Positions 99 to 19,232 of a stretch of 64,000 nt of DNA are shown piece after piece; within the stretch, counting starts at the first letter, position 1; each line of letters begins with the position of its first letter. The notes beneath the pieces were generated by a model, which saw only the letters and a program-made list of their open reading frames with translations, had not been told where the DNA came from and searched no databases. This DNA comes from Pseudomonadales bacterium (lineage in GTDB: Bacteria > Patescibacteriota > Microgenomatia > UBA1400 > PJMF01), in the NCBI GenBank assembly GCA_020632265.1, contig JACKFW010000001.1:75785-139784 (forward strand), given 5' to 3'. A program made the position numbers and the translations under genes.

Positions 99-3000
99 TT
101 ACTTCAAATTCTCAAAACTTACATTCGAATCATCATCAACGTCAAACTTAATATATGAAACAAAAGAGTCGTTGTCTGAAAGGTTAGCAAAATAATGCGT
201 TTTCTTGTCCTGATCATATTTGTATTGATATTTACTTTCTCGCGTTATCTCAGTTTCATCATTTTGATTTAATACAAGTTCTCTATTACTGGTAACAATA
301 TATTTATTTATATTCGGGAACTCAGCAAACTTTTTTTCAAGCTCATGTACGAAGTTACTCTCTTCTTCTGTATTTTGCCAGTTCAAATTAGTTGCAATCA
401 CAAATATGTTCTTAATATCTGGCAATTTCTCTATTTCGAGGAAAGAATTGTAGAGAAAGAGTTTTTGATTCGCATCAGCTTGGGAGTTTTCATCCAAGTC
501 TAAAAATATAAAATAATCCTTTTGAGTGAAAAAGTTATGATAGCTAGATTTATATAATTTGGTATTGAGTAGGTCGTAGTTTCCGGCGTTATACAGAATT
601 GGATAATCGACTAAGTTGCCAAAGTTTTGATCAAAATAAGCCATCCAGGAGGCTTCGGTAACATGAATTGGATCGCCGGTTAGAATTAAGAAGTCATTTG
701 TGCTTTTATTTAAACCTGCATTATTTAGATTTTTGATAAAGGATTTAGTCGTGTAAGGTAGTTTGGCTGGATCATTTTGAGGATTTTTAATTGGAGCGTA
801 TCGATTATTTAAAACTGAGAACGAGTAACCATTGGATAATTTACTTGGATCTAAAGTGTTGTTATTGATTGAAGGCGGCGTTTTTGAAACTCGCTCAGCA
901 AGACTGGAAACTTTAAAGAGGTTGCATTGATCATCGCAATCAATTACTTCATAAAAAATATCGAAAGATTTTTTGAAGTTTTCAAAGTTATTTTGAAAGG
1001 TTGAATTATTTTCAATGCCGTAATCTGTAATATATAGCTCGCTATCGTTTGATAGAATATTTTTATAGCTGGTTTCAAGATTTAGTCCCTGCGAATCAGT
1101 TGCCAAATCTGCCCAAACATTTTGAGTTTGATCAAAGTAAGTTTGTTCTGGTGACAGAGGTAAAAGATCATAACTTGGTGTTTTATATAAATCGTAAGAA
1201 AAAGGGTTTATAAGAGTGATTAAATAGTATTGTTTATTTGGATTGGCAAAATATTTATTATCAAATTGAGCATTAAACCTTTTTACTAGCCAGTTTTGAT
1301 ATGCTGGTTTGTTGTTTCTGAAGTTTGTCTTAATGTTTGCAATTAGATTCATTTGGAAAATTGTGCCTAATATGGCTACTAATAAAATCAAGTGAGCGAA
1401 AACTCGATTATTTTCTTTAAATTTTATTAAAATATATGAATAAATAATTGGTAAAGTTAGCGCCAATAAAATAATTTCTAAAAATATTGAATTGGTAAGA
1501 GGTTGGCTTGTAACTGAAAACAGGTTGAAAATAAGAAAGCTGATCATTAGTGAGAAAAATTTTAGGGAATTTTGATGACTGGATTTCTTTTCTGAAGCAA
1601 TTATTTTTGAAATAATAAGATATACGATCAAAATTATTAAAATTGCCAAAGAAATATTTAGATAATAATATGTGCCAGGATCTGAATAAATTTTATAAAA
1701 TGGAACAAGTAAGAAAGAATAAAAGTTTGGATTATTTTTCAAAACTAGACCATTGTCTCTACAAACAGAAAATGCATTGATTTTTAGATAACATTTTGCA
1801 GTGACGACATTTTCGATAGCTTCGGGAGTTGTATCAAAATTTTTCAAAAGACTATTAGTGGCGTATGGGTTTTTATGAAGAGTTAAAAACAGAAGCAAAA
1901 ATGCAAGATAAAAGGTGAAATGCTTTTTGAAGTGTTTGATAATATTAAAAGTGGCATGATGTGTTTTGGAAGGATTTGAGCTTAAGGCCTTAGAATTTTC
2001 TGATTTTAAATTAGCTTTTGTGGATATAGATCCAGCTTTTATAATGATTCCTGCAAAAGCCCAAAAGGTAAAGGCAACTTTGGAAGCAGCGAAGACATCG
2101 ATGTAAGTTGCGTTGATCAGCAAGCCAATAATTGAACCAACAAAACCAATATTTAGAGCAGAAATTAACAGATCTGATTTTTTGATATTTTTATTTGCTT
2201 CAATGAGGATAATTAAGATAAAGCCATAAAATGTAATGAAGCCTAAAAATCCAGTTTCTCCAAGTGTTCTTAGAAAATTATTATCCGTTCCATCTGCTTC
2301 CGAAAACACGCCATTTTCAAGTTGAGAAAGTGCTGCGTAGCCAGAACCAGACAAAGGATTATTTGCTAGGCCCTTTAGTGCTTGTGGCCACAACTCATCC
2401 AAGCGGATTGCCATCGAAATTCCATATTTCAGAGCGTTAGCAGACCAAACACTTTTTTGTGGGATTATTTCTTTGGTTTCAGTGCCATCTTCATTAATAG
2501 TGGTTTTAATATAAAATTCATGTCCCTCTCCGAATAAATCTTCGGGTACTGTTGGATCGGAAGTTTCTGGTGAGATTGAAATTCCTGGAATTTTGGAAAT
2601 AATTTTATTTGCAGTTTCATTTCTTTGAGCAATGGATAAAAGTGCGGATTCTGTTTGTGCGCCAAATAAAGTAATTAATAAAGTGAAGCCAATTAGCAAA
2701 ATTACTAATGCAATTCCACCCCAGCGAAGTTTTTGCCTAAAATTCTTTAATTTTCGTAAATTTAGATAAATTACTGCGAGTAACCCTACAAAATAGGCGA
2801 AAAGAGCCGTTTTTGAGCCACTAGTAATGAGCATCCAGGCGCCGAGCGCATGGGTTAGGTGCAAAATAAGTTTAAAAGCGACTGCTTTGCTAGTTAGAGC
2901 TTTTTGCTTTTTGAGTTTTTTGAGCGGCATTAAACTGATTGCAAAAATTAGTGGTAGAACGATTACGAGATAGGCTGCTAAATCATAGTGACCGGCAAAA

Positions 3001-3596
3001 GTGGATTGAGGTCGGGCATTTTCCTGTAGATAAAGTTTTTCACCTTTGGAATATTCTCTATTCATCGTTGAGTACAATGGAAAATGCATATATTTTTGAC
3101 CAAAGCCATAACCGACAATTCCTAGTAAGGTGATTAACAAAGTGACAACAATAATTTTTAAATGTTGTTTGGTTTTGACTGCAGAATATAAGAAAAAGAA
3201 TAAAGTGAAGTATTCAATATATCTGAAATAATGAAGAGCACTTTTTCCAATATGAATTAGTTCAAAAGGAATGGACTGCAAAAGTGTGGCGCTGATAAGT
3301 ATTGTAGTGAAACCAGCGAATAAATAAGTTAAAACTATCCAAAAATACGGCGTGTTCCAAGAAAACTTTTTTTGATAGGCATCTCTTAGCCAAACTAAAA
3401 GAGTTAGAAATATAAAGAAGTCCTCTGCTCTAACACGGACAATATATCCAGGTAAAATATCAAGGATGGGAATTTTAGGAAATAATGGAATGAAAGCTAG
3501 CAAAAAAGTGCTTGAAACAAACAAAAGATTTGTATTCAGCCAAACAAAGAATTGTTTAGATTTTGACCAAATTATGATATTTTTGATTTTTTTCAT
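99..3596 (-). CDS. Large membrane protein with an N-terminal O-antigen ligase (Wzy_C/WaaL-like) domain fused to a second TM block and a ~430 aa C-terminal soluble domain
   Basis: 1165 aa. N-terminal ~520 aa has >=10 predicted TM helices and O-antigen-ligase family motifs: 'ITSGSKTALFAYFVGL' (the conserved SRG/SKT loop) and 'DNNFLRTLGETGFLGFITF' (H/N-N-x-x-L-x-x-x-x-E-x-G-x-x-G). A second hydrophobic block follows (residues ~560-740), then a hydrophilic Asn/Asp-rich C-terminal domain. Confidence 0.6.
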   Translation of the reverse strand: MKKIKNIIIWSKSKQFFVWLNTNLLFVSSTFLLAFIPLFPKIPILDILPGYIVRVRAEDFFIFLTLLVWLRDAYQKKFSWNTPYFWIVLTYLFAGFTTILISATLLQSIPFELIHIGKSALHYFRYIEYFTLFFFLYSAVKTKQHLKIIVVTLLITLLGIVGYGFGQKYMHFPLYSTMNREYSKGEKLYLQENARPQSTFAGHYDLAAYLVIVLPLIFAISLMPLKKLKKQKALTSKAVAFKLILHLTHALGAWMLITSGSKTALFAYFVGLLAVIYLNLRKLKNFRQKLRWGGIALVILLIGFTLLITLFGAQTESALLSIAQRNETANKIISKIPGISISPETSDPTVPEDLFGEGHEFYIKTTINEDGTETKEIIPQKSVWSANALKYGISMAIRLDELWPQALKGLANNPLSGSGYAALSQLENGVFSEADGTDNNFLRTLGETGFLGFITFYGFILIILIEANKNIKKSDLLISALNIGFVGSIIGLLINATYIDVFAASKVAFTFWAFAGIIIKAGSISTKANLKSENSKALSSNPSKTHHATFNIIKHFKKHFTFYLAFLLLFLTLHKNPYATNSLLKNFDTTPEAIENVVTAKCYLKINAFSVCRDNGLVLKNNPNFYSFLLVPFYKIYSDPGTYYYLNISLAILIILIVYLIISKIIASEKKSSHQNSLKFFSLMISFLIFNLFSVTSQPLTNSIFLEIILLALTLPIIYSYILIKFKENNRVFAHLILLVAILGTIFQMNLIANIKTNFRNNKPAYQNWLVKRFNAQFDNKYFANPNKQYYLITLINPFSYDLYKTPSYDLLPLSPEQTYFDQTQNVWADLATDSQGLNLETSYKNILSNDSELYITDYGIENNSTFQNNFENFKKSFDIFYEVIDCDDQCNLFKVSSLAERVSKTPPSINNNTLDPSKLSNGYSFSVLNNRYAPIKNPQNDPAKLPYTTKSFIKNLNNAGLNKSTNDFLILTGDPIHVTEASWMAYFDQNFGNLVDYPILYNAGNYDLLNTKLYKSSYHNFFTQKDYFIFLDLDENSQADANQKLFLYNSFLEIEKLPDIKNIFVIATNLNWQNTEEESNFVHELEKKFAEFPNINKYIVTSNRELVLNQNDETEITRESKYQYKYDQDKKTHYFANLSDNDSFVSYIKFDVDDDSNVSFENLK

Positions 3597-3603
3597 TGCT
3601 AAT

Positions 3604-5337
3604 CTATTTTACAGCAGATTTGTGGGAATGTGGAAAGGCAATGAGTGAAGTTAAAAATAAAATACTTATAAGTGAAATAAGATCTGAAACTTTTTGAACA
3701 TTGGTTTTTTGAAGAATTAGTTTAATCGTGTGATTGCCCTTATCAACTTGGACAAGAATTGTGCCGTCATCAGCAATTTCTTTTTGAGTAATTTCATCAT
3801 CCACCGCAACAGCCCAAACTGGCAAATCCCAGACAGCTAGATTTATTTTTTGAGGTTTACTGAGAGTTAATTCAACAACCTTTTTTACATTGCCATAGGA
3901 TGGTTTGGAAGTGTGATTGATGATAACAGCGCTTCCCGTAGCATTGAGAATTATTGGACCCGGTAAGACTGGTATTTTTGTAGCAGTGATAGGCATTAGT
4001 TCCCAAGAAATATCGGTAGGACCATTAAAAGATTTTAAGTCTTGGGTGTAATCTAGATCTTGTTTCCAATCTAGAGGCCAAGGTTTTGTGTAGTTTCTAA
4101 TGTTATAAATCATTACCAATAAAATTAATGAAATAAATATCATTCTTTGTTTGCTCGCTAGCATTTGTGAAACTAGACCGATGGCAAATGAACCTACCAA
4201 TGAAGTGGCAGCTAATAATCTCCATGGAAATTGAATTAGTTGTAGCGGATAAATTATTTGCCAGACCGATCTTGAGTGTTCCGTCATTAAGAAAATGAGG
4301 ATGCAAAAAGTAATGAGGAAAATTACTAAAAGTTTTGCTTCTTTTCTTTTCTTTTTTTGGAATATTAAAATAAGGGAAATTAAAAATGAAATCAAAATTG
4401 CTAATCCCACCTGAAAAGAAACGTCATCAGTTTTAAATGATGTAGAACTGCCGTAGCCCCATGCTGAATAGATGATTTGTTTTATTGTAGACCAATGGTC
4501 GGTGTAATCGATTAATACTTCGTTGCCTATTTTTACCCAGGATTTTTCAAGCATAAATGGGAAAAAATAAAATGCTGATAGTAAAACGCCAAAAATTGTA
4601 GAGGATATTAGGGCCAAGACTTTTTGTTTTGAAAAGTTTTTGCTAAGTAAATAGAGCGCGTACGCAGACAGTGGAATAAAGAAAATGATAATTGAGAGAA
4701 GGTGCGAAGTAATAATGCCAGCAATTCCCAGAGTCAAAGGGGCGCTATTTTTGCTGAATATAGGCTGATTTTGTGATTTTCTTGCACGATCTTTCTTTGA
4801 ATCTTTAGCAGTAAATAGCTGATAAAGTCCTAAACCGATTAAGGGTGCAAACAATAAGCCATATGAACCACCGGTTTGACCCGTAACGTAAAGGGTTAGA
4901 AACCTAAAAGGGACAATTCCATATGATATTGTTGCCAGTAGAGCTGGAACTGTATCCAGATGTTTTTTCATCCATAAATAAAAGGTTTGAAGTGAGCAAA
5001 AAATCACCAAAAACTGCATTAGTTTCCAACTCAAGGTAGTGCTAAATCCTAGGCTTTGAAAAAAAGCTGAAACGTAATATGGCAGTGGATAAAAAAACTG
5101 AAAAGTTAAGTAGCCATATGAATAGGCAATTTCTGGTGTCATGCGAACCGGAAATTGGCCGCTTTTTAGTTCTGTGAAAAAATGGAATGACCTGATGAGA
5201 TGGTAATCACCGTCATGAGTGCGATACATGCCAGGTTGAGAAAATGAGTTAAATGTAATGAAGATTGAAAGAAATAGGATAATCAAGAAAGAGAGAAATT
5301 TGGCAGAATTAGTGTTTAAAAGTTTATTAATGCACAC
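3604..5337 (-). CDS. Polytopic membrane protein, candidate GT-C glycosyltransferase (YfhO-like architecture); paralog of 56990..58849
   Basis: 577 aa. N-terminal motif 'HDGDYHLIRSFHFF..GQFPVRMTPEIAYSYGYLTFQFFYPLPYYV' aligns with 'HDYTQGARIVEM...GHFPVRWSQNFGYGYGMPLFEFYAPLPYYV' of ORF 56990..58849. About 9 TM helices, an extracytoplasmic C-terminal domain, and a final C-terminal TM anchor. Confidence 0.45.
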   Translation of the reverse strand: MCINKLLNTNSAKFLSFLIILFLSIFITFNSFSQPGMYRTHDGDYHLIRSFHFFTELKSGQFPVRMTPEIAYSYGYLTFQFFYPLPYYVSAFFQSLGFSTTLSWKLMQFLVIFCSLQTFYLWMKKHLDTVPALLATISYGIVPFRFLTLYVTGQTGGSYGLLFAPLIGLGLYQLFTAKDSKKDRARKSQNQPIFSKNSAPLTLGIAGIITSHLLSIIIFFIPLSAYALYLLSKNFSKQKVLALISSTIFGVLLSAFYFFPFMLEKSWVKIGNEVLIDYTDHWSTIKQIIYSAWGYGSSTSFKTDDVSFQVGLAILISFLISLILIFQKKKRKEAKLLVIFLITFCILIFLMTEHSRSVWQIIYPLQLIQFPWRLLAATSLVGSFAIGLVSQMLASKQRMIFISLILLVMIYNIRNYTKPWPLDWKQDLDYTQDLKSFNGPTDISWELMPITATKIPVLPGPIILNATGSAVIINHTSKPSYGNVKKVVELTLSKPQKINLAVWDLPVWAVAVDDEITQKEIADDGTILVQVDKGNHTIKLILQKTNVQKVSDLISLISILFLTSLIAFPHSHKSAVK

Positions 5338-9394: not shown

Positions 9395-10159
9395 ATGATA
9401 TATAAATATAAAGAGTTGTTATCTGAATTGACTAAAAGAGAAATTAAAGCTCGTTATAAGCAATCCGTATTGGGTTATGCCTGGGTTATTCTAAATCCAT
9501 TCTTCCAAATGTTGGTGATGGCGTTTGTTTTTTCAAAAATTTTAAGAATTACCGATTTGGGTGTGCCCTATGCCCTTTTTCTATATGTAGGACTACTTCC
9601 TTGGAATTTGTTTGCTGCATCTATTACTAGTAGCATGAACTCTCTTGTTGGAAATGGCTCACTACTAACCAAAATTTATTTCCCTCGAGAAATTTTTGTA
9701 ATTAGCACTATTCTAGCCAAGATAGTTGATTTTTTATTGGCATCAATAGTTTTGGTAATATTCTTTATATTTTTCCATCAGCAAGTCACGTTAAATATTT
9801 TCTGGATACTTCCAATATTCCTGATTCAGCAACTATTTACTTTTGGTCTGTCGTTGGTTTTGTCGGCCTTTAATTTGTTCTATAGAGATATTCAGTACCT
9901 CTTTGGTTTGATTTTACTCACGTGGATGTATATTACGCCAGTCATTTATCCTACTGAAATGTTTCCAGAGCAGTATCGATGGATTTTCAAATTAAATCCG
10001 ATGGCAATATTTATCAATGCCTATCGTCAAGTTATGTTGGGCGGCGGCTTGCCAAACTTTACAAGTTTGGGAATAGCTTTGGGACTTTCTCTAGTTATGG
10101 TCGTTATAGGGTATAAAATATTTAAAAATCTAGAAGGGATGTTTGCCGATGTCGTCTGA
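9395..10159 (+). CDS. wzm: ABC-2 type polysaccharide/teichoic-acid exporter permease (Wzm/TagG-like)
   Basis: 254 aa, 6 TM. N-terminus 'LTKREIKARYKQSVLGYAWVILNPFFQMLV' is the hallmark of Wzm/KpsM/TagG permeases. Its 3' end overlaps the downstream ATPase gene. Confidence 0.8.
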   Translation: MIYKYKELLSELTKREIKARYKQSVLGYAWVILNPFFQMLVMAFVFSKILRITDLGVPYALFLYVGLLPWNLFAASITSSMNSLVGNGSLLTKIYFPREIFVISTILAKIVDFLLASIVLVIFFIFFHQQVTLNIFWILPIFLIQQLFTFGLSLVLSAFNLFYRDIQYLFGLILLTWMYITPVIYPTEMFPEQYRWIFKLNPMAIFINAYRQVMLGGGLPNFTSLGIALGLSLVMVVIGYKIFKNLEGMFADVV

Positions 10160-10880
10160 CGTAGCTATTTCCATCCAGCATGTTTCTAAGCTTTTTAGAA
10201 AGCAGAACCAGAGAACTTTTAAGGAATTAATTCCTGCTTTATTTGGTGGAAAAAAAGTAGCTGAGTCTTTTTGGGCTTTGAAAGATATTGATCTAGAAAT
10301 TAAAAAAGGTGAAACTATTGGAATAATTGGTGTGAATGGTTCGGGCAAGTCTACTTTGCTTAAGTTAATCGCAGGTGTCTCACAGCCCACAAAGGGCAAG
10401 ATAACTACTGTTGGCAGAATGGCACCCTTGATTGAATTAGGAGCTGGTTTTCATCCAGAGTTAACAGGCAGAGAGAATGTTTATTTAAACGGGATTATCT
10501 TGGGAATGACTAGAGCCGAAGTTGATGCCAAATTCAAAGAAATTGTTGATTTTGCAGAGATTTGGGATTTTATTGATCAGCCAGTAAAGCATTATAGCTC
10601 AGGGATGTACTTAAGATTAGCTTTTGCAGTCGCAATTCACACTGAACCAGAGATTTTATTGATTGATGAGATCTTGGCTGTCGGAGATACTGCTTTCCAA
10701 GCAAAGTGTTTTAAAAAGATGGATGAGTTTAAGAAAAATAAGGTTGCTATTATGTATGTGAGTCATAATATGGATTCGGTTAGAACTTTTTGTGATAAGG
10801 TGTTATATATTGATGATAATAAAATGGCTGAATTTGGTAAAAAAGATCTGGTGCTAGATCAATATCTTAGTAAAATATAA
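10143..10880 (+). CDS. wzt: ABC transporter ATP-binding protein (Wzt/TagH-like), short form without a C-terminal carbohydrate-binding domain
   Basis: 245 aa. Walker A 'GIIGVNGSGKSTLLKLIAG', ABC signature 'YSSGMYLRLAFA', Walker B 'LLIDEILAVGD'. The annotated start at 10143 is a TTG; an in-frame ATG lies at 10149. The gene overlaps the wzm stop, consistent with translational coupling. Confidence 0.9.
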   Translation: MPMSSDVAISIQHVSKLFRKQNQRTFKELIPALFGGKKVAESFWALKDIDLEIKKGETIGIIGVNGSGKSTLLKLIAGVSQPTKGKITTVGRMAPLIELGAGFHPELTGRENVYLNGIILGMTRAEVDAKFKEIVDFAEIWDFIDQPVKHYSSGMYLRLAFAVAIHTEPEILLIDEILAVGDTAFQAKCFKKMDEFKKNKVAIMYVSHNMDSVRTFCDKVLYIDDNKMAEFGKKDLVLDQYLSKI

Positions 10881-10889
10881 GGAATTATT

Positions 10890-11567
10890 ATGAATTTAGA
10901 AGATAAAATAAAAAAAGCTAAGGAAATAATTCTAGAAGCTAGTAAAAAATGGGATCACGATAAAATTGCAATTGCTTGGACCGGAGGTAAAGATTCTACA
11001 GTTATTCTTCATATTGTTAGAGAGATGTTTGATGGTAAAGTTCCGTTTAAGTTGATGTTTAATGATTCAACTTTAGAGTTTCCAGAAATATATGATTTTA
11101 TAAGAAAATATGAAAAAGAATGGGATTTGGATTTGTTGTGGATTAAGCATCTTCCAGAAGATCTTAAAATTTATGAGACTTCATCGAATAAAGAAGAGCA
11201 AATGGAGATTTTGAGAATTGCTAAAATTAATGCATTAAACTTCGCTCTTAAGGAATATGACCTCAAAGCATTTATGTCTGGAATTAGGTGGGATGAACAT
11301 GAGGCGAGAAGTGATGAAAAAGCATTTTCTAAAAGATCTTCTCATATGAGAGTTCATCCTATTTTGCAGTTCACAGTTGATGATATCTGGAATTATATTC
11401 GAATGTTTAATGTACCTTACGTAGATCTTTATGATAAGGGATATAAGTCATTGGGTGAAATGCCATTTACTAGTCCAGTTGATGATCCAAATGCTTCAGA
11501 AAGAGCTGGAAGAGATGCAACAAAAGAAAGAGTCATGAAAAGATTGAGGGATTTAGGATATTGGTAA
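10890..11567 (+). CDS. PAPS-reductase-family PP-loop ATP pyrophosphatase-like protein (no catalytic C-terminal Cys motif)
   Basis: 225 aa. PP-loop 'IAWTGGKDSTVILHIV' (SGGKDS). C-terminal family block 'GIRWDEHEARSDE...HPILQFTVDDIWNYI...YVDLYDKGYKSLGEMP'. Lacks the 'ECG(L/I)H' Cys of true CysH reductases. Confidence 0.7.
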   Translation: MNLEDKIKKAKEIILEASKKWDHDKIAIAWTGGKDSTVILHIVREMFDGKVPFKLMFNDSTLEFPEIYDFIRKYEKEWDLDLLWIKHLPEDLKIYETSSNKEEQMEILRIAKINALNFALKEYDLKAFMSGIRWDEHEARSDEKAFSKRSSHMRVHPILQFTVDDIWNYIRMFNVPYVDLYDKGYKSLGEMPFTSPVDDPNASERAGRDATKERVMKRLRDLGYW

Positions 11568-11571
11568 AGAT

Positions 11572-13140
11572 ATGACAAAACATGTCTATCTAGTCTCTAT
11601 TGATGCACTTCGATTTGATTGTGTGCCTTATCAACAAGATAAAAGCTTTTTAAAAAAACATCGTGTTCTAAAATATCTTAAAATACCAACTTTAGAAAAA
11701 TTAACAAAAAAAAGTCTAAATTTTGAACTTGCGACTACAACGGCACCCTATACATCTGCTTCGCACGCTAGTTTGTTTACTGGCCTATATCCTCCCAGAA
11801 CTAACGTTAGATCTTTTTTTAATCCATCTTCTAGTTCATTAAATAAAAATTTAATTACTTTAGCTGAAGTATTTAAGTCTGAGGGATATAAAACTGTTTT
11901 TGCAACCGATGAAGAGTCTGTGTTTAAACCTTTAGATCTACATAGGGGCTTTGATTACTTTTTTCCAATTAACGATGATAAATTAATTTCATTTATTAAA
12001 AAAAATAAAAATGAAAAAATCTTTGTTTTTAAACATTTTTTAGATGTTCACAATCCTTACCTATACACGAGATATAGTTATAAAAAGGATGTAAATAACG
12101 ACTATGAAAAGTTTATTAGTAAAAAAATTAATAAGAAAGTAAAACTAAAAACAAATTTAAATTATTATGATTCATGGAGAAAAGTTTACGGAGGAAAAAA
12201 TAATAACATTAAATCTTTATTCCCCTTGTATGTGAAAGGAATAACTAAGTTTGATCAAGGTAGATTTAAATATTTTATCGAAAATCTAGAGAAAATGGGA
12301 GAGTTTGAAGAATCTTTATTTGCTTTTTTTGCAGATCATGGCGAAGGTAGGACAGATAAAAATGGCTTTTTTGCTCATGGAGGTGATTTATATGATGATG
12401 CAGTGAGAATTCCTTTGTTTTTAATTCATAAAGATATTCATAAAGTAAAGAATGATAAGCGTCTTGTTTCTCTAATAGATATTTTTCCTACGATAACTAA
12501 TTTTGTTTTTGGGGATGATGTTTTCTTCTATCCTAAATATAATCTTGATGGCATTGATTTGCTTAATTTTACTAATACTCATAGATATACATACTCTGAA
12601 GTATGGAAATCAAATATAATAAATCCTTTGGAATATCCAGATAATAAAGATTGGTTACTTTCAGAGAGATGTATTAGAACAAAAAATAAAAAATTTATTT
12701 TGAAAGGAAAGCCAGAAGTGTTTTTGATTTCGAATGATGATGCTCGATTTAGTCAAGGTGATATCGGTAAATATATATTAACTGAATTTAGCAATAAAGG
12801 AGTCAACCTCTCTTTTAAAGATGGGTCGTTAATTCAAGCATTGAAAGACGCAATTAGAATCTTCAATGATCGAATGACCAAATATTATGATCTAAAAAAG
12901 GACAGATGGGAAGAGAATCCAGATAATATATTACGAAATAATTATGGCTTTAAGAATAAAATATTGGTTTGGTACTTTATTAAAGCAATATATAACATTG
13001 ATAAAACAATATTAATAAATGATGAAGCTATTGCTAAATTAATTAATGATCGATTATATAACATAATTATTCGTATAAACATGAATGAAATAAATTTAAA
13101 AAATAAATTTAAGGATTTGTTGGGAAAATATTTGGCATAA
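11572..13140 (+). CDS. Alkaline-phosphatase-superfamily enzyme, type I phosphodiesterase/nucleotide pyrophosphatase (NPP)-like, cytoplasmic
   Basis: 522 aa, no signal peptide or TM. 'VYLVSIDALRFD' (metal site 1, compare NPP 'iSfDGfRyD'). 'TTTAPYTSASHASLFTGLYPPRTNV' (T-nucleophile-x-P-x-x-T...H-x-S-x-x-T-G-x-Y-P, compare NPP 'TfPnhysivTGlyPesHG'). Distal 'FADHGEG...FAHGG' (DHG/HGG metal ligands). Confidence 0.65.
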   Translation: MTKHVYLVSIDALRFDCVPYQQDKSFLKKHRVLKYLKIPTLEKLTKKSLNFELATTTAPYTSASHASLFTGLYPPRTNVRSFFNPSSSSLNKNLITLAEVFKSEGYKTVFATDEESVFKPLDLHRGFDYFFPINDDKLISFIKKNKNEKIFVFKHFLDVHNPYLYTRYSYKKDVNNDYEKFISKKINKKVKLKTNLNYYDSWRKVYGGKNNNIKSLFPLYVKGITKFDQGRFKYFIENLEKMGEFEESLFAFFADHGEGRTDKNGFFAHGGDLYDDAVRIPLFLIHKDIHKVKNDKRLVSLIDIFPTITNFVFGDDVFFYPKYNLDGIDLLNFTNTHRYTYSEVWKSNIINPLEYPDNKDWLLSERCIRTKNKKFILKGKPEVFLISNDDARFSQGDIGKYILTEFSNKGVNLSFKDGSLIQALKDAIRIFNDRMTKYYDLKKDRWEENPDNILRNNYGFKNKILVWYFIKAIYNIDKTILINDEAIAKLINDRLYNIIIRINMNEINLKNKFKDLLGKYLA

Positions 13141-13141
13141 T

Positions 13142-14368
13142 ATGAAAATACTTTTAACGAACCACCATCTTAATGGTTTAACTGGCTCTGAAATATTTAC
13201 TTTTACAGTAGCTAATTTTTTATTAAAAAATAGTAATCAGGTTATACTTTATTCTAAATTCATAGATGAAACACTACCTTTCTTTGAGTCAAAAAATGTT
13301 GAAGTAATATCTGATTTAAATCTTATCAAAAATGAAAAAATTGATATAGCTCATGTTCATCATGTTACTTCTGCTTTAGAGGTAAGGTACTATTTTCCTG
13401 ATTTACCAATGGTTTATTTGTCTCATGGAATAATTCCAGACCTAGAACAAAATCCAGAACTCATTTCAAACCTAGACATTGCTAAGTTCTTAGCAGTCAG
13501 CGAAGAAGTCAAAGATAATTTAATTAAATCAGGAGTAAATAAGTCTAATGTTGAGATATTCAGAAATATTTTTAATACAGACTTATTTCATGAAAAAAGG
13601 AAAATTAACAAAAAGCTAAAAAACGTATTAGTAGTTTCTGCCAGAATCGATGAGAATAAAGAAAACAAAATAAAAAAGGCGTGTGCAGAATTAAATCTAA
13701 ACCTTAAATTTGTTGGTGGGAGATTTGGCTGGAAGAATCAAAAACAAATTTCAGAACTTATCCAGTGTTCAGACGTTGTTTTCTCTTTAGGAAGAGGTGT
13801 AATTGAAACTATGCTAAGTGGAAGAGTTCCTTTTGTTTTTGATTACTTAGGAGGTGATGGATTAATTACTCCGGAGAATTATAAAGAAAGCATGACTTGT
13901 AATTTTTCCGGTAGAAAAAATCAAAAAGATTATTCAGTAGCTGAATTAAAAAAGGAACTTTCTAAATATAATTATGAATATGGTGTTAGGCTGAAAGAAC
14001 TAGCATTAAAAGAATTTTCTGCAAATATTAAAATCAAGGAACTCATTGGTATTTATGATAAAATAATCAAGAAAAAATCCAGAGTAAAGTTGAGCAGTTT
14101 AGATAAAACAAAATTAAAGTTAATTAATTCAGTAATTTCATTAACTAAAGACTATCAGACCAACCTATTAAGTAAATATTTTGAAAAATCAATAATAAAT
14201 TATGAAGTGAATGATGAGCTTGATGGTTTAATAGTTGAATATGTTTCCTTAGAAGAGAAAAGCAAGCTGCTTTATTTTGAAAAAGATAGCTGTCAACGTC
14301 AGCTTAATAGCTTGTTAAATTCAAAGTTCTATAAATTGTCGCAATTTTTATTAAATCTAAAAAGGTAA
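13142..14368 (+). CDS. GT-B fold glycosyltransferase-like protein (GT4-like N-terminus) with a C-terminal coiled-coil extension
   Basis: 408 aa. N-terminus 'MKILLTNHHLNGLTGSEIFTFTVANFLLKN' parallels the downstream bona fide GT4 ('MKILLISHTFLPKYVGGTEVYTFELATEL'). The canonical EX7E is not obvious, so the call is tentative. Confidence 0.4.
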   Translation: MKILLTNHHLNGLTGSEIFTFTVANFLLKNSNQVILYSKFIDETLPFFESKNVEVISDLNLIKNEKIDIAHVHHVTSALEVRYYFPDLPMVYLSHGIIPDLEQNPELISNLDIAKFLAVSEEVKDNLIKSGVNKSNVEIFRNIFNTDLFHEKRKINKKLKNVLVVSARIDENKENKIKKACAELNLNLKFVGGRFGWKNQKQISELIQCSDVVFSLGRGVIETMLSGRVPFVFDYLGGDGLITPENYKESMTCNFSGRKNQKDYSVAELKKELSKYNYEYGVRLKELALKEFSANIKIKELIGIYDKIIKKKSRVKLSSLDKTKLKLINSVISLTKDYQTNLLSKYFEKSIINYEVNDELDGLIVEYVSLEEKSKLLYFEKDSCQRQLNSLLNSKFYKLSQFLLNLKR

Positions 14369-14375
14369 TAAGTGA

Positions 14376-15872
14376 ATGAATACAAAAAATAATGATTTTA
14401 ATTCCACAGAGTACTTAAAGAAGAAAATTTCTAAAAAGAAAAAAGAAGTTTCTAAGTTGGAGAAAGAAGTTAATGCTAAAAAAAAAGATATTGAAAAGAT
14501 CACCTCCTCTAAAGCCTTTTCTTATTGGGTTTTATTTAATAAAACTAAGTCAGATATTATGAGAAATATTTATCCAAAGTTACTTCTTGACAGAGGTAAA
14601 ACGTTATTAAGAAAAATAAAAGTGGATTTGAATGCAAAAAATTATATCACTCGCCTAGAAAATGTCAAAGTTTCAAAAAACTACAAAATATCAGTAGTTA
14701 TCCCCACTTATTATGCAGAAAGTTTTATGCCCTCTCTATTGAAGGCAATTTCTGCTCAAAAACACATTGAAGATTTAGATTTAATTATCATTGATTCTGA
14801 GTCTAAAGACAAAACTCAAGAATTTGCTAAAGACTTTGGGGCTAATGTTCTAACTATCAAACAAAATGATTTTACTCATAGTTTAGCTAGAAATATTGCA
14901 GCTAAACATGCCAAGCATGACTTGATTCTATTTACAGTCCAAGATGAACTTCCAGCCGAGAATACTACTTTTGCCAAAATGGCAGAATTACTTTATTTGG
15001 ATCAAAACATTGCAACAGTCTCCACTAGACAGATTGCAAGACCAGACGCTGATATTTTTGCAAGATGGCAAGTAGACAATCACAATCAGGCACTTGATTT
15101 GAATTATGATTCAATTAGTAAAATTAATGATTTTAATAAATTTAGTCAGGAATCATTTGTTTTACAAAGAAGAGTTTCTTTGCTAGATAATGTATGCGCA
15201 CTATACAGAAAAGATATTTTCACTGAGCTGAATGGCTTTACGGAGGTTATCTTTGGAGAAGATTTAGATTATGCATTTAAAGTCCTGAAAAAAGGCTATA
15301 AACTTGGCTTAGTTTGTTCGACCGGAGTAATTCATTCTCACAATCGACCAGCTCATTATTTCTTAAAAAGAACTTTTGTTAGTAGCATGCTTGATCTGGA
15401 TTTATTATCTGCTGTGGACGATAGTATAGTGATCAACCCTAGTTTAGATTTAATAGCAGGCCTAACTATTTCTGAATATTTATCAAGTAAACAGACTTTG
15501 TCAGAATTTTCTAAAGATGACCTTCGTGAATTTATGAATAAATTCAAGTTTAATGATTTTAAAAAAAGTGAAATACGTTCGGAGTTAAGCAAACTAATTT
15601 TATTCTCTCTAGAAAGTACAAATTTAGATAATAAATCTATCTCCGATGATGATATTCTTAAATATTATCAAAATTTATTAAATATGTTAGATAATTATTT
15701 GAAAAAACACCCTCAAATAATTGCCTCAATTAAGGACAGATTTGGTTTTCTGGAAAAAATGCTGGGCACTAAAATTGGAGATACTCTAGCAAAATATTGC
15801 CTGAGCAAACAGACTACTGAGGTCAAGATAAATACAAAAATATTAAAAAATATTTTGTTTGGATACGTATGA
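14376..15872 (+). CDS. Family 2 glycosyltransferase (GT-A) with an N-terminal Lys-rich coiled-coil segment
   Basis: 498 aa. 'KISVVIPTYYAESFMPSLLKAI...DLIIIDSESKDKTQEFAKDFGANVL' is the Glycos_transf_2 core. The first ~45 aa 'KKKISKKKKEVSKLEKEVNAKKKDIEKI' are coiled-coil-like. Confidence 0.75.
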   Translation: MNTKNNDFNSTEYLKKKISKKKKEVSKLEKEVNAKKKDIEKITSSKAFSYWVLFNKTKSDIMRNIYPKLLLDRGKTLLRKIKVDLNAKNYITRLENVKVSKNYKISVVIPTYYAESFMPSLLKAISAQKHIEDLDLIIIDSESKDKTQEFAKDFGANVLTIKQNDFTHSLARNIAAKHAKHDLILFTVQDELPAENTTFAKMAELLYLDQNIATVSTRQIARPDADIFARWQVDNHNQALDLNYDSISKINDFNKFSQESFVLQRRVSLLDNVCALYRKDIFTELNGFTEVIFGEDLDYAFKVLKKGYKLGLVCSTGVIHSHNRPAHYFLKRTFVSSMLDLDLLSAVDDSIVINPSLDLIAGLTISEYLSSKQTLSEFSKDDLREFMNKFKFNDFKKSEIRSELSKLILFSLESTNLDNKSISDDDILKYYQNLLNMLDNYLKKHPQIIASIKDRFGFLEKMLGTKIGDTLAKYCLSKQTTEVKINTKILKNILFGYV

Positions 15873-17227
15873 AAATATTACTAATTTCTCACACATTTCT
15901 GCCTAAATACGTAGGTGGTACTGAAGTATATACTTTTGAATTAGCAACAGAATTAAAGGCTCAGGGTCACGATGTAGAAATATTATGTACTGATCCTTTG
16001 AGTAAAAAGAAAGCCTATTCATTAACTAAGAAAAAATATAGAGGTTTAAATATTAGTGTAATTGAGAAAAATATTTTAAAATATGAAAATTTTGAACAAA
16101 CTTACTTTGATACAGACGTAGATGATATATTTATTAAATTTATTGATGATTTTAATCCAGATATCATCCACTACACTCATTTAATGCATCTTTCGTTGAA
16201 TCTGGTTTCAATAGCATCCCAACGCGGAATTAAACAGGTTGCTACTTTAAATGATTTTTGGATGCAAACTCATTTATTTAACAGGGTTACTTCTAAAGGG
16301 ACGCTTTATAAAGAATTCTCTAGGGAAGAGGATGCGAGAGAACTCTCAGATAAATTAAATTCAGGTCCAAGAAAAAGTACTCCTCTGAATTTTGCATATT
16401 TTCTGAAAAATAAAGATAAAGTTGAATATTTAAAAACAGTCTTCAAAAAGGTAAGTCGAAGAGTACTGGGCCATTCTACTGAGTTTTTAAATTTGAATAA
16501 ATATTTAAATCTTATTGATCATAGGTCTGACAAAGTTAGAGAGACTTTATCTCAACTTGATCTAGTAATTTTTCCAACTGTGTTTCTTTATCAGGAATTT
16601 TCTAAGTGGGGATTTCAATCAAAGCAAGTAATTATCTCTGAACATGGCATTGATACATCTCTATTTAAAAAGTTCACAAAGGAACCAAGTAAAAAAATAA
16701 GGTTTGCATTTATTGGTGCAATTATTCCAGCAAAAGGTCTGGATATTTTGCTAAAAGCTTGGAAAAAAATAGATTCAAGTAATGTTGAACTAAAAATATA
16801 TGGCAAGTTTGATCTTGATAAAAAGTATACTTCTTCTATCCAGTCGCTTATATCTCATTCTAAGAGTATTAAACTTGAAGGTACATTTAAACCTGAAGAA
16901 ATTGCTCAAGTTTTCTCTGAAGTTGATGTCTTAGTTTTGCCATCAAGATGGTTTGAGAATGGTCCTCTGGTATTGCGAAACTCTTTGTTGGGTAAAATTC
17001 CAGTGATAGCTACTAATTTGGGCAGTAATCCTGAGTATATAAATGATCCTCTTAATGGACTGTTATTTGAAAATGAAGACGAAAATGACCTGGCTAATAA
17101 GATCGAATTTCTAATTGAGAAGCCAGAAAAAATAAAGGAAATGTCTAAAAAAATTCTTAAACAAAAATCAATTAAACAAGATACTTTTAATTTATTATAT
17201 AATTATCAAAACTTATTAAAATCATGA
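15869..17227 (+). CDS. Family 4 (GT-B) glycosyltransferase
   Basis: 452 aa. N-terminus 'MKILLISHTFLPKYVGGTEVYTFELATELKAQGHDV'. C-terminal 'LPSRWFENGPLVLRNSLLGKIPVIATNLGSNPEYINDPLNGLLFE' carries the EX7E-type Glycos_transf_1 motif. 4-bp ATGA overlap with the upstream gene. Confidence 0.85.
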   Translation: MKILLISHTFLPKYVGGTEVYTFELATELKAQGHDVEILCTDPLSKKKAYSLTKKKYRGLNISVIEKNILKYENFEQTYFDTDVDDIFIKFIDDFNPDIIHYTHLMHLSLNLVSIASQRGIKQVATLNDFWMQTHLFNRVTSKGTLYKEFSREEDARELSDKLNSGPRKSTPLNFAYFLKNKDKVEYLKTVFKKVSRRVLGHSTEFLNLNKYLNLIDHRSDKVRETLSQLDLVIFPTVFLYQEFSKWGFQSKQVIISEHGIDTSLFKKFTKEPSKKIRFAFIGAIIPAKGLDILLKAWKKIDSSNVELKIYGKFDLDKKYTSSIQSLISHSKSIKLEGTFKPEEIAQVFSEVDVLVLPSRWFENGPLVLRNSLLGKIPVIATNLGSNPEYINDPLNGLLFENEDENDLANKIEFLIEKPEKIKEMSKKILKQKSIKQDTFNLLYNYQNLLKS

Positions 17228-18159
17228 AAAAAAATAGATGTGTAGTTTACGGGGCAACAGGATTTATTGGAGGATATTTAGTAAATGAATTAATTAGAAA
17301 TGAATATTATGTTGTTGCTGTCGGAAGAAATACTGAGAAATTACATAAAAAATTTGGAAATTTGACCAATTCATTAGAAATTAAAGCGTGTGATTTTAAA
17401 GATACAACTAAAAGTATTTCTTTTCTGAGAGAATATGATATTGTTTTTGATCTCGTTGCATCTTCAGTACCTGTAACTTCTGTAAAAATGCCTATTGAAG
17501 AAATTCAAAATAATATTGAGCCACAGGCTGACTTTTTTATGCGTGCTTGTGAAAAAAAGGTTAGTAAAATTATCTTTACCTCATCTGGAGGTAGTATTTA
17601 TGGTGATATGGGTGATAAGCCATTCTCGGAGACAGATTTGCCAAATCCTCAATCACCACATGCAATAGGAAAACTATCTACAGAATATTTTCTCAAATAT
17701 TTTTGCTCAATAGCTCATCTCCCATTTACAATTTTTAGGGTCAGTAATCCCTTTGGGATGGGTCAAGAAAAAACTGAAGGATTTGGAGTAATTCCAACAT
17801 TTTTGGAAGGGATAAGAACTAATACTCCTCCAACTCTGTTTGGGGAAGGAAATTTGGTGCGAGACTTTATTCATGTTCAAGATTTAGTTGAAGCAATTGT
17901 TTTATCATTATATAAAGATAATAATTACTTTATATATAATATTGGAAATGGATCTGGATTAAAAATAAGAGAAGTTTGGGATGTAATCAAAGAAGCCTCT
18001 GGGACTAATTTAGTTCCCATTTTGAAAGAAAGCAGATCTTTTGATATAAAAAAAATAGTTCTAGATATTTCTAGATTTTCAAATGAGTTTACTTGGAAGC
18101 CAAAGACAGATGTGAAGGAATCTATATCGAAGCTAGCTAGATCAATTAAAAACTATTAA
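17224..18159 (+). CDS. NAD-dependent epimerase/dehydratase (extended SDR)
   Basis: 311 aa. Rossmann 'CVVYGATGFIGGYLVNELI'. The catalytic YxxxK region ('HAIGKLSTEYF') is degenerate. Confidence 0.75.
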   Translation: MKKNRCVVYGATGFIGGYLVNELIRNEYYVVAVGRNTEKLHKKFGNLTNSLEIKACDFKDTTKSISFLREYDIVFDLVASSVPVTSVKMPIEEIQNNIEPQADFFMRACEKKVSKIIFTSSGGSIYGDMGDKPFSETDLPNPQSPHAIGKLSTEYFLKYFCSIAHLPFTIFRVSNPFGMGQEKTEGFGVIPTFLEGIRTNTPPTLFGEGNLVRDFIHVQDLVEAIVLSLYKDNNYFIYNIGNGSGLKIREVWDVIKEASGTNLVPILKESRSFDIKKIVLDISRFSNEFTWKPKTDVKESISKLARSIKNY

Positions 18160-18176
18160 TTTGCTGAATCTTATAA

Positions 18177-19232
18177 ATGAAAACAAAATTAAAGAAACCC
18201 AGATTAGTATTTATTGATTTAATCAGGGTAGTTGCTATCTTTTTTGTTATCTTTCATCATTTACATTTTCATTTTTTAGATATGGGATTATTTAGCAAAG
18301 ACGAACTTTGGTCTAATAGTTTTTTTGGTCTGAGTTATGGTGACATTGGTGTTTCACTCTTTATATTTATATCAGGACTTAGTTTAACAATCTCATCAAA
18401 TTATGGAAAATTTAATATAATAAAATTCTTTTCCAAAAGAATTAAAAATATATATCCTGAATTTTTTATTGCTTACTTTTTCTTTTTTTGTTGGTACGCA
18501 TATATGAAATATTTACCAAAAACAGTAGATTTTCCAGGACTTTTACTTTCATTAACTGGACTTGATACATATTTGATATCATTCTTTGATTTTAAATTTT
18601 ATTCATTATTTGATTGGTTTATTGGATTTATTTTAATTTTATATTTAATATTTCCTTTGATGTATTCGATCTACAAAAAAAATCAGTTTCTTTTGTTATT
18701 TACTGCCATTTCTTTGCTTTCTTTTACCTTATATATATCTAATAATCAAATAGATTCTAGGTTTATAACGCTAAGAATTTTAGAATTTTCATTGGGTATG
18801 TTGTATGCAAAAACTGCATTGAGTAAAAATAATGGCAATCATTTCTTGATATTAATGTTTAGTTTATTGGCCTTGTTTACTTTTTATACAACGTCAACAG
18901 TAATATTTTTCTTTATTCGTTTAATTATTGTTGATTATATTTTTATAGAAACAGCTTATTTTATCTGCAGTCATTTTAAAAAGAATAAAATTATTAATAA
19001 ATCAATAACTTATTTAGCTTCAATATCATATTTAATCTTTTTACTTCAACATCAGGTTATAATAAGAATTATGGGAGATATATTTTTACCAAATAAAGTT
19101 TTTTTTGCTCCAGCTTTCATCTCTTCATTGTTATTTCAATCTATATTTATTATTTTATTTATCATATTCTTTGCTGTAATGCTATCAAAAATTGGCAAAA
19201 TAATATTTAATAGATTTATGATTAGTAAATAA
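18177..19232 (+). CDS. Acyltransferase family 3 membrane O-acyltransferase
   Basis: 351 aa, ~10 TM. N-terminus 'RLVFIDLIRVVAIFFVIFHHLHFH' is the typical Acyl_transf_3 first helix with a conserved His. Confidence 0.6.
   Translation: MKTKLKKPRLVFIDLIRVVAIFFVIFHHLHFHFLDMGLFSKDELWSNSFFGLSYGDIGVSLFIFISGLSLTISSNYGKFNIIKFFSKRIKNIYPEFFIAYFFFFCWYAYMKYLPKTVDFPGLLLSLTGLDTYLISFFDFKFYSLFDWFIGFILILYLIFPLMYSIYKKNQFLLLFTAISLLSFTLYISNNQIDSRFITLRILEFSLGMLYAKTALSKNNGNHFLILMFSLLALFTFYTTSTVIFFFIRLIIVDYIFIETAYFICSHFKKNKIINKSITYLASISYLIFLLQHQVIIRIMGDIFLPNKVFFAPAFISSLLFQSIFIILFIIFFAVMLSKIGKIIFNRFMISK

Follow-up and report, generated by a model that had tools for sequence, protein, structure and literature searches.

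A CysD-like enzyme and a Thr-nucleophile sulfatase-fold protein form a conserved module of bacterial glycan loci and may sulfate glycans before export

Background

Dedicated copies of sulfate-activation genes are known from glycan clusters, as exemplified by NodP and NodQ in rhizobia. Comparable cases include Campylobacter jejuni HS:19, where cysDN and cysC lie in a glycan cluster and act with 3'-phosphoadenosine 5'-phosphosulfate (PAPS) and a canonical sulfotransferase (PMC8743553), and saccharomicin, where sulfate-activation genes are likewise found with PAPS and a canonical sulfotransferase (PMC13291958). A 2024 review distinguishes four classes of sulfotransferases, namely the PAPS-dependent polysaccharide, cytosolic and tyrosylprotein enzymes and the PAPS-independent aryl sulfotransferases, none of which has a sulfatase fold or uses adenosine 5'-phosphosulfate (APS) formed in situ (PMC11625862). 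Here we analyze a 64,000-nucleotide stretch of bacterial DNA (contig JACKFW010000001.1, positions 75,785 to 139,784; the whole stretch is referred to below as the window), in which two adjacent genes, P1 (10890..11567, plus strand) and P2 (11572..13140, plus strand), follow the wzm and wzt genes of a glycan exporter. P1 encodes a protein of 225 amino acids (aa) with the PAPS-reductase fold, and P2 encodes a 522-aa sulfatase-fold enzyme of the alkaline phosphatase (AP) superfamily. Their public annotations are generic ('PAPS reductase family protein' and 'sulfatase-like hydrolase/transferase').

Two further kinds of characterized systems have a bearing on these genes. The Thr-nucleophile members of the PF00884 family, LtaS, EptA/MCR-1, and GacH, are group transferases that use phospholipid donors and decorate envelope glycans or lipids via a covalent Thr intermediate; GacH places glycerol-phosphate on the streptococcal rhamnose polysaccharide, an ABC-transporter-dependent wall polymer. 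WbdD of Escherichia coli O9a, encoded right after wzt, is a kinase-methyltransferase that terminates the chain with a methyl-phosphate cap. Our full-text literature searches returned canonical PAPS systems only, with no description of the P1-P2 module, nor of a sulfatase-fold or an APS-dependent glycan sulfotransferase. Based on comparative analysis of sequences, predicted structures and gene neighborhoods, we propose, with a probability of roughly 0.5, that P1 makes APS and that P2 transfers its sulfuryl group to a glycan in the cytoplasm before ABC export.

Results and discussion

Co-occurrence and fusion of P1 and P2

We scanned the P2 family in species-representative genomes (51 distinct close loci, of which 44 were evaluable) and the P1 family in metagenomes (72 distinct loci, 51 evaluable). 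Partner counts were obtained with a profile of the P2 catalytic domain only, the fused P1 domain being excluded. More than 30 P2 homologs from Deltaproteobacteria-type organisms, Nitrospirota, Bacillota, and other metagenome-assembled genomes proved to be single chains that carry both PF00884 and PF01507. In these fusions, the P2 domain is followed by an optional DUF4214 domain and then by a C-terminal domain aligning with residues 2-225 of P1 at 40-48% identity and having the same GY[WF] end. An AP-superfamily partner is present in 47 of the 51 P1-family loci (92%), fused in five, within 300 bp in 33, and within 3 kb in nine. Conversely, 29 of the 44 P2 loci (66%) contain a P1/CysD-family domain, which is fused in 18 loci, within 300 bp in nine, and nearby in two; at the nine loci with a closely adjacent domain, it is either free-standing or part of a neighboring fused paralog. 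A Pfam scan of 70 neighbors and fusion partners of P1 was dominated by Phosphodiest (25) and Sulfatase (18), with a wide gap to the next most common families (flippases, methyltransferases, epimerases, and Wzy_C).

The fusions and the two-way co-occurrence establish that P1 and P2 constitute a functional module. Together with the locus contexts and the fusions of P2 to glycosyltransferases described below, they bear out the original prediction that the two proteins act as a pair in glycan biosynthesis. The notion that their adjacency is a coincidence and their functions unrelated is barely credible, being contradicted by over 30 fusions in several phyla and by co-occurrence rates of 92% and 66% in the two directions.

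The AP-superfamily partners of P1 are not uniform. Among the 47 partners, 29 are sulfatase-type and 18 are of the nucleotide pyrophosphatase/phosphodiesterase (NPP) type (PF01663). A second clade of cytoplasmic partners carries the motif W-T-x-P-S-H-x-S-x-F-T-G-L-Y-P, which corresponds to the sulfatase signature C-x-P-S-R with paired C-to-T and R-to-H changes. The NPP-type partners occur in L083, L085, L087, L091, L092, L094, L095, and other loci, several of them on the strand opposite to P1, and some AP-superfamily proteins in these P1-family loci have N-terminal hydrophobic segments. Tandem P2 paralogs, or two P2 domains per chain, are frequent (L015, L016, L017, L030, L039, L044, and L053; proteins P0241 and P0243), which suggests several specificities per locus. 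In a Nitrosopumilus archaeon (L044), P1 is missing and wzm-wzt is adjoined by two P2 genes. One fusion, P0180, is located between recR and ffh, a housekeeping context that is uninformative about its function.

P1 is a CysD-like protein

P1 matches the Pfam family PF01507 (PAPS_reduct) with an E value of 7.7e-38. Its PP-loop is intact and of the ATP-pyrophosphatase type, as in CysD and FMN adenylyltransferase (FMNAT); the original prediction had the fold and the intact loop right, but spelled the motif SGGKDS, whereas it reads TGGKDS. At the same position of a joint alignment, E. coli CysH has a degenerate loop. P1 ends in LRDLGYW and contains no Cys residues at all, so the thiol mechanism of CysH is not usable.

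Several comparisons place P1 closest to CysD. The best match among the Protein Data Bank (PDB) sequences is the CysD chain of 1zun, and in the joint alignment P1 shares 41% identity with the CysD proteins encoded beside P2 homologs, 31% with E. coli CysD, and 21% with E. coli CysH. In profile comparisons by hhalign, P1 aligns with E. coli CysD from end to end (E 1.3e-25), versus the core only for CysH (2.3e-15). The residues of P1 that align with CysD include TGGKDS, K112, R133-D135-E136...R140, E204-R205-G207-R208, and the terminal GYW; the tail common to both proteins, ER-GR...KE..M..LR.LGY[WFM], closes the protein in each case. P1 is about 75 residues shorter and lacks three insertions specific for CysD. 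Scores against the curated models are low for either function, with 79 bits for the CysD model TIGR02039 (cut-off 397) and 86-97 bits for the cysH models of NCBIfam (cut-offs 154-254). The AlphaFold2 model of P1 is confident (pLDDT 90.9), and Foldseek aligned it with 2oq2 and 2goy at a template modeling (TM) score of 0.78. The fold search did not separate the branches, however, as FAD synthase, PAPS/APS reductases, CysD, and FMNAT all gave E values from 1e-14 to 1e-11.

According to a passage in PMC4373884, CysD normally depends on energy from the CysN GTPase for APS synthesis. We found no CysN homolog in the window, nor adjoining P1 in any of the 72 P1-family loci, in contrast to the canonical CysD proteins of L010 and L026, which have CysN. 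Altogether, P1 is best described as a putative minimal CysD-like adenylyltransferase that lies outside the curated CysD family. A CysH-type reductase was considered and ruled out because the protein has no Cys, keeps its PP-loop intact, and gave a weaker profile match confined to the core; that P1 lacks a catalytic Cys and is not a reductase had been foreseen.

P2 is a sulfatase-fold protein with a Thr nucleophile

P2 matches PF00884 (Sulfatase) with 98.1 bits (E 7.5e-28), compared with 27.3 bits for PF01663 (Phosphodiest; cut-off 23, E 3.6e-6). In a Foldseek search of the PDB with its AlphaFold2 model (pLDDT 85, pTM 0.89), all of the 50 matches listed were S1 sulfatases or phosphonate monoester hydrolases (PMH), and sulfatases and PMH were likewise the only proteins among the 60 matches listed for the family profile against PDB sequences. 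NPP, LtaS, EptA/MCR-1, and GacH appeared in neither set. The assignment of P2 to the NPP family, made in the original prediction, was thus rejected, as Pfam, the PDB profile search, and the fold search all returned sulfatases, although the Thr nucleophile it had named was retained. The nucleophile motif of P2 is YTSASHASLFTGLYPP, in which the Thr...His part resembles the NPP motif T-x-x-x-H...TGLYP.

In alignments with sulfatases of solved structure, Thr61 of P2 takes the position of the formylglycine-forming Cys/Ser and His65 that of the signature Arg, the P2 sequence here being T-S-A-S-H. Since both residues of the C/S-x-P-x-R signature are replaced, formylglycine cannot form in P2. The stretch Y-T-x-x-x-H-A-S-x-x-T-G-L-Y-P-P is near-invariant across P2 homologs. 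The close family is small, comprising only 131 clusters at E <= 1e-30 in an exhaustive search of 1.84 billion representatives; the motif could be detected in 131 representatives, 129 of which have Thr at the nucleophile position, and none has the C/S...R signature. Invariant in the family are D11, T61, R80, D158, H160 (the leaving-group His), R231, D255, H256, E258, and H269. Judging from these positions, D11, T61, D255, and H256 as putative metal ligands, together with D158/H160 and H269, would fit a metal-dependent active site of the AP superfamily. As the known Thr-dependent PF00884 enzymes are transferases, we read P2 as a transferase.

The YDL..D..E motif of the C-terminal sulfatase subdomain is also conserved (D444, E447). 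The C-terminal extension of about 200 aa claimed for P2 therefore shrinks to residues ~450-522, which are truly additional and modeled with lower confidence, the remainder being the ordinary C-terminal subdomain of sulfatases. P1 and P2 contain no hydrophobic segment: the maximal Kyte-Doolittle means over 19 residues are 0.81 and 1.28, respectively, versus 2.65 for Wzm. With no such segment or signal peptide, and with its catalytic beta-strand beginning at residue 4, P2 should be cytoplasmic, in agreement with the original prediction.

Glycan biosynthesis context of the module

In the window, wzm-wzt is followed directly by the module, and the same arrangement occurs in L005, L012, L017, L058, L063, L075, L086, L131, and L137, which belong to several phyla, while L010 and L011 have P2 alone at this position. 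Loci L013, L016, L022, L042, and L044 have wzm-wzt within 10 kb. The proposed check on whether the pair recurs beside wzm/wzt thus turned out positive in at least ten other loci (counting those with P2 alone), and the statement that neither protein is normal in polysaccharide loci was too strong, given how many phyla have the module in loci of this kind. In Desulfovirgula thermocuniculi DSM 16036, a cultured bacterium (L022), the gene order is wzm, wzt, a TnpB-like insertion, gmd, a GDP-sugar reductase/epimerase, a P2-P1 fusion, a methyltransferase, and three GT1 glycosyltransferases, similar to that in L005. The insertion (5830-7263 of L022) is a Cas12f/TnpB-like open reading frame (ORF) between wzt and gmd; D. 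thermocuniculi is the only cultured carrier of the module that we found.

Other fusion partners found for P2 domains are GT2 together with GT1 domains, GT4/GT1 domains, a methyltransferase, a radical-SAM domain, and a domain of the C-methyltransferase C-terminal type. The locus positions and the fusions to glycosyltransferases and methyltransferases indicate that the P2 substrate lies on the cytoplasmic side of glycan assembly; candidates are the lipid-linked polymer during its growth and a nucleotide sugar. Most Wzt proteins adjoining the module have 233-267 aa and lack the Wzt_C domain, which was seen only in L010 and L011 (L051 and L056, each with a long Wzt-like ORF, fall outside this comparison). 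In a planctomycetial locus (Planctomycetia, L026; 1565-2950 and 5107-6954), an NPP-type enzyme and cysD-cysN accompany a P2 homolog with a C-terminal domain of the C-methyltransferase type. The same locus encodes two methyltransferases, a split transketolase, a B12-radical-SAM enzyme, and a short-chain dehydrogenase/reductase. The product of this cluster may be an unusual sugar that is sulfated or methylated.

A sulfatase fold next to a sulfate-activating enzyme would also make a logical pair for sulfate salvage, in which P2 would be an unusual cytoplasmic sulfatase acting on an imported organosulfate, P1 would re-activate the released sulfate, and the glycan operon would be incidental. We regard this scenario as highly improbable. 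No family member has the formylglycine signature, genes for transport or reductive assimilation were not found nearby, and the host appears to be a bacterium of the candidate phyla radiation (CPR), a group with generally reduced biosynthetic capacity. Moreover, an incidental operon is at odds with the repeated occurrence of the module after wzm-wzt and among glycosyltransferases across phyla, and with the glycosyltransferase fusions themselves.

Evidence on the transferred group

The strongest clue to the group that is transferred comes from loci in which known sulfate-activation genes stand in for an absent P1. In L026, a canonical cysD (303 aa) and cysN (GTP_EFTU) are located immediately upstream of the P2 homolog. 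In L010 and L011, cysD-cysN end a glycan cluster that starts with wzm, wzt, and P2. The P2 homolog of L014 overlaps at its start with a gene for an APS kinase (PF01583, 191 bits). In addition, cysC adjoins P1 itself in two loci, downstream in L104 and upstream in L111; the latter is a Wzx/Wzy-type locus with the gene order wzc-capD-cysC-P1-wzx-sulfatase-like(T-I-P-S-H)-PMT_2. We detected no canonical sulfotransferase domain among the scanned neighbors in L010, L014, L026, and L111, and no sulfotransferase family among the 25 most frequent families in the scan of 70 proteins. The original prediction had left the choice between a phospho- and a sulfo-substituent open, and it is the second option that gains specific support from the cysDN and cysC genes replacing or accompanying P1.

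Under the proposed mechanism, P1 would react ATP and sulfate at its PP-loop to form APS and pyrophosphate (PPi) without a CysN GTPase. P2 would then take APS directly from P1, within a P1-P2 complex in the present organism and within a single chain in many others. It would move the sulfuryl group to a hydroxyl of an undecaprenyl-linked glycan or of a nucleotide-sugar precursor at the cytoplasmic face with release of AMP, either via a sulfo-Thr intermediate or by direct transfer. Finally, to judge from the operon structure and from established knowledge of such exporters, the decorated polymer would be exported by Wzm/Wzt. Immediate use of APS would pull the thermodynamically unfavorable reaction of P1, which would account for a GTPase being dispensable and for fusions being so frequent. 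Which group is transferred, from which donor and to which acceptor, and in what order the steps proceed, is inferred.

A number of observations weigh against this scheme. The window yielded no cysN, cysC, sulfate transporter, canonical sulfotransferase, or other sulfur-metabolism genes when searched for them, so that the window by itself neither supports nor refutes sulfate chemistry. Fifteen of the 44 P2 loci have neither P1 nor a cys gene within 10 kb. The best NCBIfam match of P1, the CysD subfamily NF003587, reaches 110.4 bits against a cut-off of 195, and P1, with a predicted fold equally near to FMNAT, reductases, and CysD, could use a phosphate monoester instead of sulfate as its substrate. 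Several residues that bind sulfate in sulfatases are seemingly lost or replaced in P2, namely the Lys/His in the GKWH region and the Arg at the place of His65, as far as an approximate alignment indicates. We found no precedent for sulfuryl transfer by a Thr enzyme of the AP superfamily. The seryl sulfate trapped in Cys-to-Ser mutants of sulfatases is a dead end, and a sulfo-Thr intermediate may accordingly be chemically awkward or sluggish. The methyltransferases encoded beside P2 homologs or fused to them would fit a methyl-phosphate cap better than a sulfate. Finally, the cysC homologs could phosphorylate some other nucleotide conjugate, as in the phosphoramidate pathway of Campylobacter.

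An alternative is decoration with a phospho-group, in which P1, acting like FMNAT, would join AMP to a phosphate monoester (e.g. a phospho-alcohol) to give an ADP-X donor, and P2 would act like LtaS, EptA, and GacH, with Thr61 attacking the distal phosphorus to form a phospho-X-Thr intermediate that is resolved onto the glycan. With a neighboring methyltransferase, a simple phosphate could instead be added and then methylated, as in the E. coli O9a cap. The fold and PP-loop of P1 match FAD synthase and FMNAT as well as CysD, every characterized Thr enzyme of PF00884 transfers phospho-alcohols, and both the flanking or fused methyltransferases and the loss of some sulfate-binding residues point the same way. 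However, phospho-group transfer gives no account of cysD-cysN or cysC replacing or accompanying P1. P1 aligns with CysD including the C-terminal tail, whereas our alignments to FMNAT and FAD synthase stop short of it, and there is no conserved gene for phospho-alcohol synthesis beside the module. On balance we consider phospho-group transfer, in any of these versions, unlikely.

It is also conceivable that P1 makes APS while P2 serves as an accessory hydrolase of PPi, of AMP or 3'-phosphoadenosine 5'-phosphate (PAP), or of stray APS; the sulfate would then be transferred by an unrecognized protein of the cluster, or APS would go to enzymes encoded elsewhere. AP-superfamily enzymes do typically hydrolyze phosphate or sulfate esters or nucleotide pyrophosphates, 18 of the 47 partners of P1 are NPP-type, and ORFs without Pfam matches that might supply such a protein exist in the window (3604-5337 and 22146-23714) and in L010 (716 aa). 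Yet it is P2 that is conserved across loci, and no unidentified ORF is. A fusion of an APS synthase with a hydrolase that destroys APS or nucleotides would be futile, general pyrophosphatases are ubiquitous, and the fusions of P2 with glycosyltransferases and methyltransferases point to a glycan substrate. An accessory role of P2 therefore appears distinctly improbable.

Operon structure and genomic setting

The module belongs to a block of nine co-directional ORFs on the plus strand (9395-19232), in which every junction is at most 17 nt or overlapping. The block starts with wzm, encoding the ABC-2 permease of the glycan exporter (9395..10159; PF01061 ABC2_membrane, E 1.2e-21), which overlaps by 17 nt with wzt, encoding the 245-aa ABC ATPase (10143..10880; PF00005, E 3.8e-24; 243 aa from an alternative start). 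P1 and P2 come next, separated by the 4 nt originally described; the spacer between wzt and P1 is 9 nt, not the 10 bp given before. One nucleotide downstream of P2 begins the gene for a GT4-like glycosyltransferase (13142..14368; PF13439, E 2.9e-8), which is followed by genes for a GT2 glycosyltransferase with a Lys/Glu-rich N-terminal region (14376..15872; PF00535, E 1.6e-17), a GT1/GT4 glycosyltransferase (15869..17227; PF00534, E 5.2e-26), an NAD-dependent sugar epimerase/dehydratase (17224..18159; PF01370, E 8.3e-40), and, as the final gene of the block, a membrane O-acyltransferase (18177..19232; PF01757 Acyl_transf_3, E 3.2e-22). A promoter/terminator scan found no terminator-like site at any junction of the nine genes, and promoter-like sites were not enriched (44 observed versus 58.8 expected by chance). 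This tight organization agrees with the predicted co-transcription of P1 and P2 with the exporter genes and the following run of glycosyltransferase genes.

The wzt product consists of the nucleotide-binding domain only, with no match to Wzt_C in the Pfam search. As the 245-aa Wzt has no carbohydrate-binding domain that could read a cap, the chain-terminating cap, offered earlier as an example of the substituent, finds no support in this window. The module might still act in chain termination by a route in which export is not gated by a cap.

The long non-glycosyltransferase C-terminal region of the GT4-like protein (13142-14368) and the Lys/Glu-rich, coiled-coil-like N-terminus of the GT2 protein, both seen in the translations, may be 'ruler'-type elements as in the enzymes of ABC-dependent O-antigens. 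Antisense within the GT2 gene (14641-14668, minus strand) lies a perfect sigma-70 consensus, TTGACA and TATAAT separated by 16 nt, with an upstream TG; it may have arisen by chance in an AT-rich genome or may be an antisense or internal promoter.

The GC content of the window is about 30%, the source contig measures 1.08 Mb, and the best homologs of the locus are from Roizmanbacteria/Microgenomates; these features point to a CPR bacterium, so that the label of the source record (Pseudomonadales) is probably wrong. The same locus was recovered from independent sequencing runs and samples. All 64 kb of the window form a single envelope-glycan island, which takes up a very large part of a genome of roughly 1 Mb. 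It includes two Wzx-type flippases, a single Wzm/Wzt pair, an LCP (LytR_cpsA_psr) ligase, and rhamnose genes. GT2 matches occur in eight ORFs, a Wzy_C protein of 1165 aa is encoded on the minus strand (99-3596), and membrane proteins of the PMT_2/PMT/YfhO/DUF2079 types number at least five.

Implications

Tentatively, and with rather less than even confidence, we suggest that P2 represents a new class of carbohydrate sulfotransferases, in which the scaffold of a sulfatase, with formylglycine replaced by Thr, is run in the synthetic direction, independently of PAPS, on APS channeled from a GTPase-independent P1. If true, this would be a fifth mechanistic class of sulfotransferases, in which a paired Cys-to-Thr and Arg-to-His switch has turned the sulfatase scaffold synthetic, and it would mean that a CysD-type sulfurylase can dispense with its GTPase when the product is used on the spot. 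The fused forms would be single-chain enzymes converting ATP and sulfate to a sulfated sugar, which would spare costly PAPS in the manufacture of sulfated polysaccharides. Under the same proposal, the surface glycans of CPR bacteria, Nitrospirota, Thermodesulfobacteriota, some Bacillota, and a Nitrosopumilus archaeon would be predicted to carry sulfate, and in these organisms no canonical sulfotransferase would have given this away. Should P2 prove to transfer a phosphate-based group instead, the module is still a conserved, previously undescribed decoration system of ABC-exported glycans.

Comparison with known systems

BREX type 4 likewise pairs a protein of the PAPS-reductase fold, BrxP, with one of the AP superfamily, PglZ. 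This system was ruled out for the present locus, since the BrxP match has only 46 bits over positions 120-310 of a 779-position model, PglZ gives no match, and no other BREX genes are present; a Dnd-like DNA-modification system was rejected along with it, the context being glycan synthesis.

FMNAT of the eukaryotic type and FAD synthase (8ron, 3fwk) share with P1 the fold and the GGKD[SC] PP-loop, and they transfer AMP from ATP to an oxyanion. In our alignments, however, their match ends before the ER-GR tail, and the context of P1 is cysC and cysDN instead of flavin metabolism. WbdD resembles the module in its gene position downstream of wzt, in that an anionic group would be added, and in the methyltransferase that is adjacent or fused in several loci. 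In contrast to WbdD, P1 and P2 have no kinase or methyltransferase domain, and Wzt of the window has no cap-reading module.

LtaS, EptA/MCR-1, and GacH have in common with P2 the PF00884 domain, the Thr nucleophile, and the metal site. They are nevertheless membrane-anchored with an extracytoplasmic catalytic domain, whereas P2 is predicted to be soluble, has no transmembrane segment, and is accompanied by a putative nucleotide-activating partner.

The CysD/CysN ATP sulfurylase (EC 2.7.7.4) matches P1 in fold, PP-loop, the GxRxDE..R block, and the C-terminal ER-GR...GY[FMW] tail. P1 differs in being shorter, in scoring below the CysD cut-offs, and in having an AP-superfamily enzyme, not CysN, as its constant partner. 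As with NodPQ, a putative sulfate-activation gene is placed inside a glycan-modification locus, but the known dedicated systems pass PAPS to a canonical sulfotransferase, which was not found in the P1/P2 loci scanned.

The S1 sulfatases (8di0, 9bb9, 6fny) share with P2 the two-subdomain fold (Foldseek E ~1e-20, TM score 0.55-0.6), the metal-binding Asp/Asp-His, the leaving-group His of H-x-P, and the C-terminal YDL..D..E motif. In contrast to them, P2 has Thr61 and His65 at the signature positions, no signal peptide, a biosynthetic gene context, and a partner predicted to carry out ATP-dependent activation.

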